64,000 nt of DNA. Origin: Enterobacteria phage GEC-3S. The stretch lies in sequence record HE978309; one strand, 5' to 3'. Both the position numbers and the translations under genes were made by a program. This document shows, one piece after another, positions 23,499-28,539 of this stretch. The notes under the pieces were generated by a model. That model was given only the letters and a program-made list of their open reading frames with translations. It ran no database searches and was not told the origin of the DNA. Position 1 is the first letter of the stretch, and each line of letters starts with the position of its first letter.

Positions 23499-23690
23499 TT
23501 AGATTCCGGCGATCCTGCATAGAGTTCTTGTATTAGCACCAATCAGGATCGCATTAACGACAACCATTCCCCAATCAACCCACTGATTATTATAAATGCT
23601 AAACCCGTTTGTTAGGCCAAATACAAGCATTCCGGTACACATACTCAGAGCAATAATCAACATCACGGTAAAACCAAATGCAAATTTCAT
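23499..23690 (-). CDS. small membrane protein
   Basis: track ORF; two predicted transmembrane helices. Confidence 0.5.
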   Translation of the reverse strand: MKFAFGFTVMLIIALSMCTGMLVFGLTNGFSIYNNQWVDWGMVVVNAILIGANTRTLCRIAGI

Positions 23691-23691
23691 A

Positions 23692-23958
23692 TTATTTTCC
23701 TTTTCTCTGTTTACGTTTATAAAAGTAATACATTACCTCATCACATCCGGTGATCCAACATGCTATGGCAGTAAACAGGTTTACAATTCCCAACACACCT
23801 ACTGACGCGGCGCTGTCAACAGACATAGGAACAGTAAAGGCCATAGCTAACATAGCAACGCCACAAATGACATTAAGCACCATTATAATAAGACCGAAGA
23901 AAACCATTGTCAATCCTCCGACACAAGAAAACCAACAATCACGCCAGTGATAAGACAT
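23692..23958 (-). CDS. small membrane protein
   Basis: track ORF; hydrophobic. Confidence 0.5.
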   Translation of the reverse strand: MSYHWRDCWFSCVGGLTMVFFGLIIMVLNVICGVAMLAMAFTVPMSVDSAASVGVLGIVNLFTAIACWITGCDEVMYYFYKRKQRKGK

Positions 23959-24101
23959 GATGCGCCGCTAATCAGACAACCCGCACCAAGTGATTCCCAC
24001 CAGATCAGAGAAGCGACAATAACACAGAATCCCCATACTACCGCAATCACAACATAGGCAAGGGTCGCCCAAAACATATATTTGTTCATAATAAATCCCA
24101 T
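23910..24101 (-). CDS. small membrane protein
   Basis: track ORF; hydrophobic. Confidence 0.5.
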   Translation of the reverse strand: MGFIMNKYMFWATLAYVVIAVVWGFCVIVASLIWWESLGAGCLISGASCLITGVIVGFLVSED

Positions 24102-24274
24102 TCACCAAACAAATAAGAAAAAAGCCATATCAACAGAAACGAGGCAATTGATCCGGCAAGCAAAATGATATTAGAGAATCCGCCGTCTATCCAGGCGACA
24201 AAACAGAATACGCCAGTATAGAAGCATAAACCCATTACAAAGCATACTATAAGCAACCATAGACAAAACTCCAT
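24086..24274 (-). CDS. small membrane protein
   Basis: track ORF; hydrophobic; GGAGGG before ATG. Confidence 0.5.
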   Translation of the reverse strand: MEFCLWLLIVCFVMGLCFYTGVFCFVAWIDGGFSNIILLAGSIASFLLIWLFSYLFGEWDLL

Positions 24275-24335
24275 AGAAAGCCCTCCATCGAGATAAATTA
24301 GTACGGGTAGGGGACTGCACTACCCGCTTTGTTAA

Positions 24336-24494
24336 TCAACGCAGAGCTTCTTCTAGCGCGATCCCAAACCATCCACAAACAACGCCCATACAGACAGCTA
24401 CAAGAAGATTCATTCTCTCTTTAGGGATCATTGCAATCATAACAACAACCATACAGAAAGCCATTACCATTGATGTTAACATTTGTTCAACCAT
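24336..24494 (-). CDS. small membrane protein (about 52 aa)
   Basis: ATG behind AGGTG and overlapping the upstream stop (TGATAATG); hydrophobic; below the ORF-track cutoff. Confidence 0.4.
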   Translation of the reverse strand: MVEQMLTSMVMAFCMVVVMIAMIPKERMNLLVAVCMGVVCGWFGIALEEALR

Positions 24495-24496
24495 TA

Positions 24497-24835
24497 TCAC
24501 ACCTTTAAAGTCATAGACGCATAAACATTAATGCCAGGCCAGTTAGGATCGCAATTATACTCAACATCCCACAAATAAAGCGGTTTAGATGTATCAGCCA
24601 AGTTTTTAAAATCTTCTACCCACATTTCAAGGCTATATGATGGATAAACTAGGCTATCATATCCGCCGTAACGTTGGCCTACTGGTCGGTCAGTAAAAAC
24701 TACCTCAAGATCCGGTAATTCTTTTTCAAGGATAACCGCCAGCGCATAAATCAGACGGTCTTCCTTGTTACGCTGCCGAAGGACCGTTGTCAGTTGGTTT
24801 TTCTGGTTCACTAGCAAGCACCTCCACATTTTCAC
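24497..24835 (-). CDS. hypothetical protein (5' end overlaps upstream ORF out of frame)
   Basis: track ORF. Confidence 0.45.
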   Translation of the reverse strand: MKMWRCLLVNQKNQLTTVLRQRNKEDRLIYALAVILEKELPDLEVVFTDRPVGQRYGGYDSLVYPSYSLEMWVEDFKNLADTSKPLYLWDVEYNCDPNWPGINVYASMTLKV

Positions 24836-25088
24836 AGAATGAAATTTTCACAGACACAATTTTACCATAAGTGAAGAATGAATATACATTATCGAGATAT
24901 TCAACGTCACCTACAATCACATCAAACTGCGGATCAGCCACTGCCGCAACATATTCTACCAGTTCATCAAGAGAATGCAACTTAATTTCATCAATTCGGC
25001 TGTATTTGGTTGCATCTTTGATTTTAAAACCACGTTCTTTCAGCTTATCAATTAGAATTTCACGCGGAGTTTCAAACAGTTTGCTCAT
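24768..25088 (-). CDS. hypothetical protein
   Basis: track ORF; GAGGATTATATTATG leader. Confidence 0.55.
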   Translation of the reverse strand: MSKLFETPREILIDKLKERGFKIKDATKYSRIDEIKLHSLDELVEYVAAVADPQFDVIVGDVEYLDNVYSFFTYGKIVSVKISFCENVEVLASEPEKPTDNGPSAA

Positions 25089-25109
25089 AATATAATCCTC
25101 ACATTAAAT

Positions 25110-25310
25110 CTAAAATTTGTTAACGACGAATTGCATAATTAGACTAATCACAAACATTGCAAACCAAGTATAAATGCAACAGATAAAAGCTACATACAAT
25201 TCAATCTGGTCAGAGAATACACCGGGTAAAAGCATTAGCAAAATAAAAACAGTAAAGACGCTAGCGATACCCGCAACAAAACCAATATCATTTTTACTAA
25301 TCGTCATCAA
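25110..25310 (-). CDS. small membrane protein
   Basis: track ORF; hydrophobic. Confidence 0.5.
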   Translation of the reverse strand: MMTISKNDIGFVAGIASVFTVFILLMLLPGVFSDQIELYVAFICCIYTWFAMFVISLIMQFVVNKF

Positions 25311-25516
25311 GTCACCGTTTTGTAAAGAAACACAATAAAATCCAAGACAAGAAAGACAGTGTAAATGATCATCGTCAAGACAGTAAACATTGTCAAATTT
25401 TCATCGTTAGTTAATTCATAGTCGCCCATCCATACAATCACAAGATATAGCATTGAAAGAATGGAAGCACCTACGAAGTTAAAAAACATATTCTTGAGCG
25501 TCATATTAACAACCAT
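25307..25516 (-). CDS. small membrane protein
   Basis: track ORF; hydrophobic. Confidence 0.5.
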   Translation of the reverse strand: MVVNMTLKNMFFNFVGASILSMLYLVIVWMGDYELTNDENLTMFTVLTMIIYTVFLVLDFIVFLYKTVT

Positions 25517-26981: not shown

Positions 26982-27027
26982 AATTTGATTCTCCGTTTAA
27001 GAAAGTGTGTTTCGTTTCGATGGGTGT

Positions 27028-27056
27028 ATTATGCTATAGGCCGGATCTGGTGTCAA
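27028..27056 (-). promoter_or_regulatory. sigma70-type early promoter (TTGACA, 17 bp, CATAAT) with A/T-rich upstream element
   Basis: read directly. Confidence 0.55.
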
Positions 27057-27080
27057 CAACTTTTTTAAAAAATTTTAGGC

Positions 27081-27110
27081 AATAAAAAAGCCACTCCGAA
27101 GAGTGGCTTA
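27081..27110 (-). terminator. rho-independent terminator
   Basis: AGCCACTC-ttcg-GAGTGGCT hairpin followed by TTTTTTATT on the minus strand. Confidence 0.65.
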
Positions 27111-27258
27111 TAGGGAAGGTAGCGAATCTTCCTTGTCTCCAACCTGCTAGCGGCCTAGCAAGTGAATGCTTTAGCGTACCGGATCGCCCACATACGCTGT
27201 AATAAATGCGGCTAGGTGACGTCCAAATCATTCTAACCGCGCTGTCTTTAGTTCACTA
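27111..27258. other. about 150-bp non-coding interval between a gene end and its terminator; candidate small RNA or structured 3' UTR
   Basis: the only track ORF here (27034-27231) spans the terminator and looks spurious; local stems GGAAG...CTTCC and GCGGCTAG...CTAACCGC. Confidence 0.3.
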
Positions 27259-27477
27259 TTATTTATATCGCTTTCTCTCGCGACGTTTTTGATCTTCTTC
27301 CTTGATAGAGTTAAATGCATCAAAAAGACACATGACACTGATAATGAACATAACCGTATTTTCTACGATATCCCACGGCTTCGCATCAGTACAGATCCCC
27401 CAAACGGTAAGAAATGCAAATAAGGCAGAAGAGATCACAAGCATGATACTTGCTAAGATATAAAAAGTCATTTTCAT
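27259..27477 (-). CDS. small membrane protein
   Basis: track ORF; hydrophobic. Confidence 0.5.
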   Translation of the reverse strand: MKMTFYILASIMLVISSALFAFLTVWGICTDAKPWDIVENTVMFIISVMCLFDAFNSIKEEDQKRRERKRYK

Positions 27478-27668
27478 GGTTTTACCTCAATTCTTCGATA
27501 TTCATCACACATCCACGCAGTAAGCAAGAATCCCAACACATAAGCAACAAAATACGTTAATGCTTCTTCTGGTTCGGTGCTATGCGCCATCATCAGACCA
27601 GCGAGAAAGGTCTTAACAATTACATTTAAAATAATTAGCCACGCAAATAATTTCATCGTTTGCCCCAT
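27474..27668 (-). CDS. small membrane protein
   Basis: track ORF; hydrophobic. Confidence 0.5.
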   Translation of the reverse strand: MGQTMKLFAWLIILNVIVKTFLAGLMMAHSTEPEEALTYFVAYVLGFLLTAWMCDEYRRIEVKP

Positions 27669-27892
27669 TTCGGACGAGTCTTTTCAAACTTATACATTAC
27701 GCAACAATCTCGAATCATCCACGTAACAAGAGCACCAGTCAACACAGACAACACACAGAAGAAGTAAAACGGTCCGGTTGCATTATCAACATGAGCAAGC
27801 CATGTAAAGAAAACACATGCAAGGAATGTAAAGAACATCATAAAACACAAGAAAGCAAAATATTTTATGCTACTCATAGCGCCACCATACAA
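27653..27892 (-). CDS. small membrane protein
   Basis: track ORF; hydrophobic. Confidence 0.5.
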   Translation of the reverse strand: MYGGAMSSIKYFAFLCFMMFFTFLACVFFTWLAHVDNATGPFYFFCVLSVLTGALVTWMIRDCCVMYKFEKTRPKWGKR

Positions 27893-27980
27893 CAGATCAT
27901 AAGAAAACCCAACGCAATAAGAATTGCATCAAATTTAGTGAACTCCGGTCCACCTATCAACATCATTCGTTCCTGTTCAG

Positions 27981-28223
27981 TCATAGATCACAGAGCCATC
28001 TTAAAGCACCACATAAAGCGAGCAGAATACTAGGTATAAACGAGATCAAAACAAGTTGGCAAAAATCATCTAAGGTAACACCGGAATAGCTACCTACTGT
28101 AACAACACCGATCATCAGACACAGAAAGAAAACAAATGCAACCAGAAACAAAGTATTGCTAAACAGTTTAGTGATCATTAGACACCCCACGACGATCAAT
28201 TTCAAAAACTTTTTTATCATCAA
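27981..28223 (-). CDS. small membrane protein
   Basis: track ORF; hydrophobic. Confidence 0.5.
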   Translation of the reverse strand: MMIKKFLKLIVVGCLMITKLFSNTLFLVAFVFFLCLMIGVVTVGSYSGVTLDDFCQLVLISFIPSILLALCGALRWLCDL

Positions 28224-28371
28224 CGAAGCATGTCACAACTGCCTCGTTGACTTCCGCAAATTGTTGTGTTACCCACTTAAGGTCAGAGCGAAACAATGTT
28301 CTATTAATAACAAATGCTTTACCGATCTTATCCTTACCCATAAATTTTGCTTTAACCATATCCAATTCCAT
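28168..28371 (-). CDS. hypothetical protein
   Basis: track ORF. Confidence 0.45.
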   Translation of the reverse strand: MELDMVKAKFMGKDKIGKAFVINRTLFRSDLKWVTQQFAEVNEAVVTCFVDDKKVFEIDRRGVSNDH

Positions 28372-28380
28372 ATTATCACC

Positions 28381-28539
28381 TTATTTGCTAATCGCTAAAC
28401 CCAATCCGAAGAGAGCACCCGATGCTACAGTATACCCGAAAGTTTCAAATGCAGTAAAGATATCTAAGCCACCAGCTAACAGAGTTGCAGTAAACAGAGT
28501 ACCAGCTACGAACATAAAAGTTTTACCGATAAATTTCAT
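28381..28539 (-). CDS. small membrane protein (about 52 aa)
   Basis: GGAGAATCAAAATG leader directly downstream of promoter 28571-28599; hydrophobic; below the ORF-track cutoff. Confidence 0.45.
   Translation of the reverse strand: MKFIGKTFMFVAGTLFTATLLAGGLDIFTAFETFGYTVASGALFGLGLAISK

Follow-up and report, generated by a model that had tools for sequence, protein, structure and literature searches.

A block of small predicted membrane-protein genes between the endolysin gene and gene 57B of a Krischvirus coliphage

What are the many tiny hydrophobic genes packed between the endolysin gene and gene 57B of Enterobacteria phage GEC-3S, and to what use might the phage put them? The DNA analysed here, referred to as the window, is a stretch of 64,000 nucleotides (nt) of this phage (sequence record HE978309), and the block in question occupies positions 23499-28539. 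Megablast of 23000-29100 matched 57 phage records, 50 of them at full length, with an identity of 97-98.6% over 6.1 kb to AV108, Sf20, FL37, Phi1, RB49 and others, all belonging to the genus Krischvirus (Straboviridae). The window is that of an RB49/phi1/JSE-like Krischvirus, a T4-like coliphage.

The open reading frames (ORFs) of the block are already known. They appear as annotated genes in over 50 GenBank records, the W115 annotation labels 11 of them 'putative membrane protein', and the type of region to which they belong was described in 2007-2010 (Comeau 2007; Arbiol et al. 2010, PMC2839356). The published accounts of the RB49 and phi1 genomes and of hyperplastic regions that were consulted do not comment on the concentration of membrane ORFs, nor do they give a function for them.

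The small membrane-protein genes

The block is a gapless minus-strand series of 22 small genes equivalent to phi1 ORF103-ORF124 (o103-o125 are used below as shorthand for phi1 ORF103-ORF125), and the phi1 annotation corresponds one-to-one with the minus-strand ORFs of the window (Table 1). The same order of 22 genes is annotated in phi1, W115, SSG23, ELT4, JSE, UPWr_E1, PHB13 and G37-3. An M15 endolysin gene lies on one side of the series, while o125, 57B, 57A and gene 1 follow on the other. The gene directly past 28539, which an earlier note on this DNA had taken for a 57B-like gene, is o125, and the genuine 57B is the next gene along.

Kyte-Doolittle peaks typical of transmembrane (TM) helices were found in 14 ORFs of 29-74 amino acids (aa), namely o103-o107, o110-o112, o118-o122 and o124, whereas the other eight genes of the block encode soluble proteins: o108, o109, o113 (with an LPD25 domain), the 55.3 homologue, o115, o116, o117 (DUF7421) and dmd. 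The dense cluster of tiny membrane proteins described in the earlier note is therefore present, but its count of 15 or more is reduced to 14, and its statement that nearly every ORF is of this kind holds for 14 of 22 only. The overlapping start and stop codons that it reported were located from the ORF coordinates, with 4-nt ATGA overlaps at o105/o106, o118/o119, o119/o120, o120/o121 and o121/o122, and 11-nt overlaps at o111/o112 and o122/dmd. The check by TM prediction that it proposed also bore it out, as the hydropathy peaks agree with TMHMM predictions already in print for the orthologues in RB49. In the entire RB49 genome 21 novel ORFs are predicted to have TM segments; 14 of them fall in ORF103-124, and 13 of these 14 are called two-helix (Nolan et al. 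2006, Additional file 2). By prediction, then, the 14 membrane ORFs are 13 two-helix hairpins and one single-pass protein (o121).

Such clustering of the TM-predicted novel ORFs in ORF103-124 has a hypergeometric P of 2.4e-13. ATG-initiated ORFs that reach 45 aa and contain a TM segment number 13 in the region, against 1.1 +/- 1.1 in its dinucleotide-preserving shuffles; when two or more TM segments are required, 11 are observed and 0.09 expected. A crude scan of the remaining 59 kb of the window returned about one comparable small TM ORF. Most of the TM ORFs carry lysine or arginine at both termini and an acidic loop of 8-18 aa free of these residues. Because the termini are basic and the loop is acidic, the positive-inside rule predicts an N-in/C-in hairpin topology for most of them; o107, with a basic loop, is probably inverted (N-out/C-out). 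The C-terminal tails of o104, o118 and o120 are strongly basic. AlphaFold2 modelled the o110 family alignment as a two-helix hairpin (H5-31/H37-64) with a pLDDT (predicted local distance difference test score) of 85, and a Foldseek search of this hairpin against BFVD gave a best E of 0.9, an uninformative result for so generic a fold. Cysteine makes up 4.0% of the residues of the 14 TM ORFs and 1.4% of those of their soluble neighbours; o120 has five, o106 and o122 have four each, and most lie within the predicted helices.

Nearly all ORFs are intact across nine Krischvirus relatives, with substitutions concentrated at third codon positions. The ratio of nonsynonymous to synonymous substitution rates (dN/dS), pooled over the 14 TM ORFs, is about 0.26 in a crude estimate from these relatives; among comparison genes it is 0.02-0.03 for 57B and o125 and 0.12 for the endolysin gene. 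A divergent metagenomic contig (L016) carries o113 through o103 and the endolysin gene in the same order and at near-identical lengths. Its TM ORFs share 70-90% protein identity, as opposed to 92-97% for the soluble o108, o109 and o113, and their pooled ratio of nonsynonymous to synonymous differences (pN/pS) is 0.33 at a pS of 0.32. The o110 family, which forms 13 clusters at 90% identity in a collection of 5.8 billion proteins, has invariant proline, tyrosine, tryptophan, serine and methionine positions, including residues of the second TM helix. Judged by these patterns, the TM ORFs are real protein genes, fast-evolving and yet constrained.

The same genes turn over among relatives. Two allelic types of o110 share only 33% aa identity, with saturated dS and a dN/dS of 0.48, in a genus that is otherwise 95-98% identical (allele loci: window 25110-25516; contig L005 6065-6259; contig L003 5804-6004), and intermediates at 74-88% were found in metagenomes. 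This indicates that a single tiny membrane protein has been replaced or has diversified locally. A frameshift interrupts o111 in three of the nine relatives and the JSE-type lineage is devoid of the gene; o106 is deleted in ELT4 and carries indels in PHB13; and in a Krischvirus-like contig from a pig-gut metagenome of the European Nucleotide Archive (L017, 5179-5511) o121 and o120 are fused into a 103-aa ORF, which would yield a three-helix protein. A homing endonuclease is inserted near the endolysin gene in JSE. The frameshifts, the deletion, the allele replacement and the fusion are typical of accessory genes, and the fate of o111, o106 and o121-o120 in these relatives suggests that the individual ORFs are dispensable.

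For the TM ORFs, homology searches found no relatives outside the genus. Each of the 14 TM ORFs matches a separate PHROG of unknown function, giving 14 PHROGs for 14 ORFs, and tblastn against 50,697 phage records found matches confined to the 57 Krischvirus records. The o120 protein is represented by three clusters among 5.8e9 proteins, all at least 96% identical, and o118 by a single representative among 1.84e9. No TM ORF reached a Pfam family threshold, and the weak Pfam matches (E<=1) included none to a family recognised as one of Imm-type superinfection immunity or of type I toxins. A search with the 14 TM proteins concatenated gave no match, which is taken as an artefact of concatenation since single queries do find the Krischvirus orthologues.

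Kinship among the TM ORFs themselves was considered and rejected. The best blastp and phmmer E values were 0.005-0.3 in a 31-sequence database and not significant, the best of 136 pairwise tests reached z=3.0 against window-shuffled controls, as chance predicts, and a hint of kinship between o104, o119 and o120 (a common W-x-x-CDE and a basic tail) lost significance after the same kind of control. An apparent match of o110 to T4 trna.4 (phmmer E=0.004 in a tiny database) was likewise discarded, as a profile of three alleles scored trna.4 below 1000 shuffled decoys; no paralogy was detectable between the TM ORFs and T4 e.3, e.4 or trna.4. To all appearance, the TM ORFs are 14 unrelated, genus-restricted families under purifying selection.

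Transcription units and the non-coding stretch

Five predicted early sigma-70 promoters of the promoter-early stem-loop (PeSL) type precede genes of the block and o125. In each cassette an AT-rich upstream element is followed by GTTGACA, a 17-nt spacer that could form a hairpin, TAnAAT, a conserved leader (ACACCCATCGAAACGAAACAC) and AGGAGAATCAAAATG, and each matches an early promoter predicted in RB49 (Nolan et al. 2006; Table 1). The terminators at 29083-29063 (after 57B) and 27109-27088 coincide with TransTerm calls of the same authors. Promoter and terminator activity has been demonstrated experimentally for other PeSL copies (Arbiol et al. 2010, PMC2839356). We infer early transcription of the block from its sequence and these published predictions; the promoter at 26094 probably serves the endolysin gene as well.

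As for late transcription, no late promoter was predicted in RB49 between 48.8 and 64.5 kb (Nolan et al. 2006). The exact T4-type late-promoter core TATAAATA occurs once in the block, at 27267-27260, just upstream of a non-coding stretch; it is unlisted in that study, and window-wide the core occurs eight times against 6.1 +/- 2.4 by chance. A near-consensus sigma-70 promoter, TTGACA-17-TATTAT, is located at 23913-23885 (-), at the o105/o104 junction, and is absent from the published RB49 list.

The cassettes are themselves repeats. Direct repeats of 61 nt at 26045-26105 and 27007-27067 (also 28997-29057) are 89% identical; the first two, 962 bp apart, each cover a PeSL cassette from the -35 to the leader, and together they flank o117-o116-o115-55.3. 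Repeats of such kind can recombine into mini-circles (Arbiol et al. 2010, PMC2839356). The o117 gene, alone between two PeSL cassettes, shows 73-78% nt identity to genes of T1-like coliphages of about 50 kb (tonn, tunzivis, ADB-2, pSf-1 and others) and has the lowest dN/dS of the 22 block genes, 0.04. It looks like a single-gene cassette exchanged horizontally.

Between o118 and the terminator, 175 nt are non-coding and 97-100% conserved in the nine relatives, in which frame-breaking indels of 1-2 nt are confined to the tip of the second hairpin. The stretch folds into four hairpins followed by the intrinsic terminator, with a minimum free energy z of -3.1. Three Rfam matches are stacked on it, all sub-threshold. 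Homology to T4 rnaC/rnaD was rejected, as alignment gave no convincing similarity and ARAGORN found no tRNA. Lying where T4 has stable RNAs, the stretch may be a 3' untranslated region element or a small RNA.

Table 1. Genes, promoters and other features of the block and its flanks in window coordinates; (-) denotes the minus strand
Feature	Position (strand)	Description	Matches, selection or extent of unit
M15 endolysin gene	23081-23470		
o103	23499..23690 (-)	63 aa, hydrophobic, 1-2 TM; directly upstream of endolysin gene	phrog_15016; TMHMM 5-27, 37-54; intact in 9/9 relatives, dN/dS 0.39
o104	23692..23907 (-)	71 aa, 2 TM, basic C-terminal tail KRKQRKGK	phrog_15232; dN/dS 0.24
o105	23910..24089 (-)	59 aa, 2 TM, 4-nt overlap with o106	phrog_16151; dN/dS 0.23
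o106	24086..24274 (-)	62 aa, 2 TM	phrog_19354
o107	24336..24494 (-)	52 aa, 2 TM, basic loop	phrog_16035; dN/dS 0.23
o108	24497-24811 (-)	104 aa, soluble ORFan	no Pfam match; dN/dS 0.10-0.11 (with o109)
o109	24768-25088 (-)	106 aa, soluble ORFan, 44-nt overlap with o108	no Pfam match
o110	25110..25307 (-)	65 aa, 2 TM, two deep allelic types	phrog_15379
o111	25307..25516 (-)	69 aa, 2 TM	phrog_21837
o112	25506..25688 (-)	60 aa, 2 TM, 11-nt overlap with o111	phrog_16425; dN/dS 0.32
o113	25697..26023 (-)	108 aa, soluble, LPD25 domain; first gene after promoter at 26094	PF18840 E=3e-14
Promoter	26066..26094 (-)	-35 starts at 26094; RB49 Pe:57746	o113-o112-o111-o110-o109-o108-o107-o106-o105-o104-o103; continues into endolysin gene
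55.3 homologue	26103-26291 (-)	soluble	
o115	26301-26489 (-)	soluble	
o116	26502-26729 (-)	soluble	
Promoter	26787-26759 (-)	-35 starts at 26787; RB49 Pe:58430	o116-o115-55.3; ends at next PeSL cassette (26094)
o117	26796..26981 (-)	61 aa, soluble	DUF7421 (E=4e-40)
Promoter	27056-27028 (-)	-35 starts at 27056; RB49 Pe:58699	o117 only; ends at next PeSL cassette (26787)
Conserved structured non-coding stretch	27085..27258 (-)	ends in intrinsic terminator 27109-27088	
o118	27259..27477 (-)	72 aa, 2 TM, highly charged C-tail, strict ORFan	phrog_15168; dN/dS 0.15
o119	27474..27656 (-)	60 aa, 2 TM, ATGA overlap at both ends	phrog_15717; dN/dS 0.19
o120	27653..27877 (-)	74 aa, 2 TM, basic C-tail, 5 Cys, strict ORFan	phrog_15290; dN/dS 0.09
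o121	27874..27984 (-)	29-36 aa, single C-terminal TM	phrog_15282; TMHMM 13-35
o122	27981..28178 (-)	65 aa, 2 TM, 11-nt overlap with dmd	phrog_17225; dN/dS 0.55
dmd	28168..28371 (-)	67 aa, antitoxin against RnlA/LsoA	PF17587 57 bits (cutoff 27); phrog_2102 E=1.3e-30
o124	28381..28539 (-)	52 aa, 2 TM, Gly-rich; first gene after promoter at 28599-28571	phrog_16462; dN/dS 0.16
Promoter	28599-28571 (-)	-35 starts at 28599; RB49 Pe:60244; accompanying hairpin 28563-28586	o124-dmd-o122-o121-o120-o119-o118; ends at terminator 27109-27088
o125	28606..28980 (-)	124 aa, soluble ORFan, after promoter 29046-29018	dN/dS 0.03
Promoter	29046-29018 (-)	-35 starts at 29046; RB49 Pe:60694	o125; unit ends at next PeSL cassette (28599)
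57B (Acb1 anti-CBASS phosphodiesterase; CBASS, cyclic-oligonucleotide-based antiphage signalling system)	29090..29554 (-)		PF23474 174 bits, E=1.5e-51, full length

Possible functions of the membrane proteins

The reading favoured here, with a probability of about 0.55, is that these proteins are early accessory modulators of the inner membrane, used in phage-phage and phage-defence conflict. In a Krischvirus genome the hyperplastic (accessory) e-57B region would have this block as its cargo, transcribed early by the host sigma-70 RNA polymerase from the five near-identical PeSL cassettes. Thirteen of the 14 membrane ORFs would belong to two polycistronic units (o124...o118, and o113...o103 with the endolysin gene), and overlapping or abutting stop and start codons would couple their translation. 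The products would insert into the inner membrane, where they could act only through helix-helix contacts or a short tail, as individually dispensable factors that remodel or protect the membrane against other phages and host defences. Likely roles would be Imm-like superinfection exclusion, or the blocking of membrane-acting abortive-infection effectors or host membrane proteins, and the hairpins would not be lysis machinery.

Proteins of less than 80 aa that consist almost wholly of TM helices, and act by helix-helix contact or membrane perturbation, are known from bacteria, both as small membrane regulators (AcrZ, MgtS, KdpF) and as type I toxins (Hok, TisB). These are host-encoded and bear no sequence relation to the hairpins. 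Support for a conflict role comes from the genomic context: dmd lies inside one of the TM operons, Acb1 two genes upstream of that operon, o113 carries the LPD25 domain, and the corresponding region of T4 also encodes IpI and Acb1. Accessory regions are, moreover, recognised hotspots of counter-defence genes. In T4, dmd is found between 61.4 and gene 41, a position at which phi1 has only ORF017-ORF021; in JSE and SSG23 dmd has a 1-nt gap and a displaced start, and the gene is annotated as 195 nt. Many records label 57B 'RNA ligase' or 'conserved hypothetical', though the protein is a full-length Acb1.

A role of the hairpins in superinfection exclusion is plausible by analogy with T4. Neither imm nor sp is annotated in phi1 1-50 kb, phi1 114-164 kb or the window; these sequences add up to about 88% of a Krischvirus genome, and searching them with T4 Imm by tblastn returned only noise (E>8). 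Since Krischvirus is without detectable imm or sp, an analogue is to be expected, and Imm-like exclusion may reside among the hairpins. T4 Imm is an early superinfection-immunity protein of 83 aa with two TM helices, and o104, o118 and o120 resemble it in size, in their two TM helices and in a charged C-terminal tail; the likeness is one of architecture and predicted timing, as Imm has no sequence similarity to the TM ORFs. T4 Sp is a periplasmic protein, unlike the hairpins. In the same portions of the genome rIII is not annotated either.

Several points weigh against this reading. Only neighbourhood, timing and architecture speak for a conflict role; neither homology nor experiment connects one of the 14 proteins with a function, and a literature search for experiments on these ORFs, or on small membrane proteins of Krischvirus in general, returned none. 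Early transcription from these particular promoters is itself a prediction. The o113...o103 operon continues into the endolysin gene, which is compatible with a link to lysis, and the promoter at 23913-23885 could express o103 and the endolysin gene separately. The dN/dS of the TM ORFs, 0.26-0.33, is looser than the 0.02-0.12 of core genes, and constraint is weak on some of them, namely o110 (0.77-0.86), o106 and o122. Finally, the search for imm and sp left out phi1 95-114 kb (about 12% of the genome), and homology of proteins as small as the Imm-like ones could escape detection.

A more far-reaching version of the favoured reading, which we regard as unlikely, would see in the block a purpose-built set of 14 membrane-embedded inhibitors that evolved independently, each directed at a different inner-membrane target and co-expressed with Dmd and Acb1 as an early counter-defence programme. 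The targets would be the route by which a superinfecting phage brings in its DNA, an abortive-infection or CBASS-type effector that acts on the membrane, or a transporter or protease of the host. If this were true, phages would possess in tiny TM hairpins a general class of anti-defence proteins that has so far gone unrecognised, and the locus may be a nursery for the de novo origin of hairpins from T-rich DNA.

It is also quite unlikely that the hairpins are host shut-off toxins which, like the type I toxins Hok, TisB and Ldr, depolarise or permeabilise the inner membrane early and thereby arrest host metabolism or transport. Their size, hydrophobicity and predicted early timing would fit; regions of novel ORFs were recovered less often than expected in shotgun clone libraries, which suggests toxicity (Nolan et al. 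2006), and expressed small early proteins of other T-even-like phages have been published as inhibiting growth. However, the Pfam search gave no match at E<=1 to a recognised type I toxin family, 14 distinct toxins would be redundant, and early depolarisation would hurt a phage whose DNA entry and replication depend on the proton motive force.

Lysis control, foreshadowed by the earlier note in its proposal of holin- or antiholin-like proteins, is improbable. The hairpins, o103-o107 especially, would in that case be class-II-type holins, pinholins or antiholins that time or release a non-T4-type endolysin, and these five genes do lie directly upstream of the endolysin gene, on the same strand and probably on the same transcript. 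Class II holins and pinholins (e.g. S21 68) and antiholins share with the hairpins a length of about 70 aa, two TM helices, N-in/C-in topology, a basic C-terminus (as in o104, o118 and o120) and a position next to the endolysin gene. The Pfam matches to holins, from two families at E=0.16-0.21, remain below threshold (o104 to Phage_holin_3_5, 12.2 bits with a cutoff of 27; o120 to Phage_holin_3_6, 12.4 bits with a cutoff of 28.4), and the other ORFs have none. A holin role is unlikely because the canonical lysis genes are at other loci: Krischvirus has a T-holin elsewhere (phi1p254, 48% identical to gp t of T4 at E=1e-62), as well as rI, which specifies the RI antiholin, and pseT.2/pseT.3, which we take to be the T4 spanin genes. 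The phi1 genome also carries rI.-1 and rIIA/B, outside the block. In addition, the only promoters predicted for the block are early ones, 14 unrelated proteins far exceed the needs of a lysis cassette, and viable isolates have lost o106 and o111.

That the products are subunits of a single hetero-oligomeric membrane complex we also hold to be improbable. The consecutive ATGA overlaps of o122-o121-o120-o119-o118 in one operon would imply coupled and roughly stoichiometric synthesis, these five genes are the best-conserved set, being present in 57 of 57 Krischvirus records, and o121 and o120 occur naturally fused. Such overlaps are nevertheless common across T4-type early operons, and in the other cluster o106, o110 and o111 were lost or replaced independently.

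That the ORFs are near-neutral proto-genes, young and translated de novo ORFs from T-rich DNA that contribute little and hitch-hike in a recombination-prone region, would agree with their strict restriction to the genus, their shortness, the T-rich coding strand (AT skew), constraint relaxed relative to core genes and the pseudogenisation of o111 and loss of o106 in relatives, but is made improbable by a pooled dN/dS of 0.26-0.33 at dS up to 0.3-1.25, by length and order kept in all 57 genomes and in divergent contigs, by the invariant aromatic, proline and serine positions of the o110 family and by a charge topology consistent across the ORFs.

The locus in T4-type phages and its interest

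With early accessory membrane modulators as the favoured reading, the position of the block deserves consideration. The earlier note placed it where T4 carries its tRNA cluster and internal-protein genes, and T4 agrees: between e and 57B it has nudE, e.2-e.8, rnaC/rnaD, eight tRNAs, segB, trna.2-4 and ipI, so that IpI and Acb1 belong to the syntenic region, while IpII is encoded immediately past e. ARAGORN found no tRNA genes in the window. The further suggestion that the T4 content was replaced by membrane proteins needs qualification, since a different cargo in a known hyperplastic region fits better, and some membrane ORFs occupy the same position and strand in T4 (e.2, e.3, e.4 and trna.4, four of 14 ORFs) and in Gualtarvirus Rgz1 (within gp115-gp123, six of 24). 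These are not homologous to the hairpins, are fewer and mostly larger (61-176 aa), and both phages keep tRNA genes there. Membrane ORFs are thus a recurrent minor component of the e-57B region, of which Krischvirus is the extreme case, its tRNAs lost.

The block is a hyperplastic region, with repeated PeSL cassettes before ORFans and a gene content that varies among relatives. The hyperplastic regions of phi1 and RB49, in the same genus, likewise place ORFans between core modules (Comeau 2007; Arbiol et al. 2010, PMC2839356), and the PeSL regions of the latter study share with the block strong sigma-70 promoters with a hairpin, a conserved leader and Shine-Dalgarno sequence, and variable gene content. 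They differ in that most membrane ORFs here are in long operons and not under one PeSL per ORF. That study concerns the mechanism of shuffling, and neither the block nor its bias towards membrane proteins is discussed there.

The sequence itself adds nothing over the published Krischvirus genomes, and the value of the analysis lies in pointing to a neglected locus that has already been sequenced. No part of T4-type genomes is understood less well than the small hydrophobic ORFans, and two thirds of the small membrane proteins predicted for one phage are gathered here in a single 5-kb early block together with Dmd and adjoining Acb1. Because the membrane ORFs are concentrated with Dmd and near Acb1, the block offers a compact and tractable target for deletion and expression screens of superinfection-exclusion or anti-defence factors acting within the membrane.

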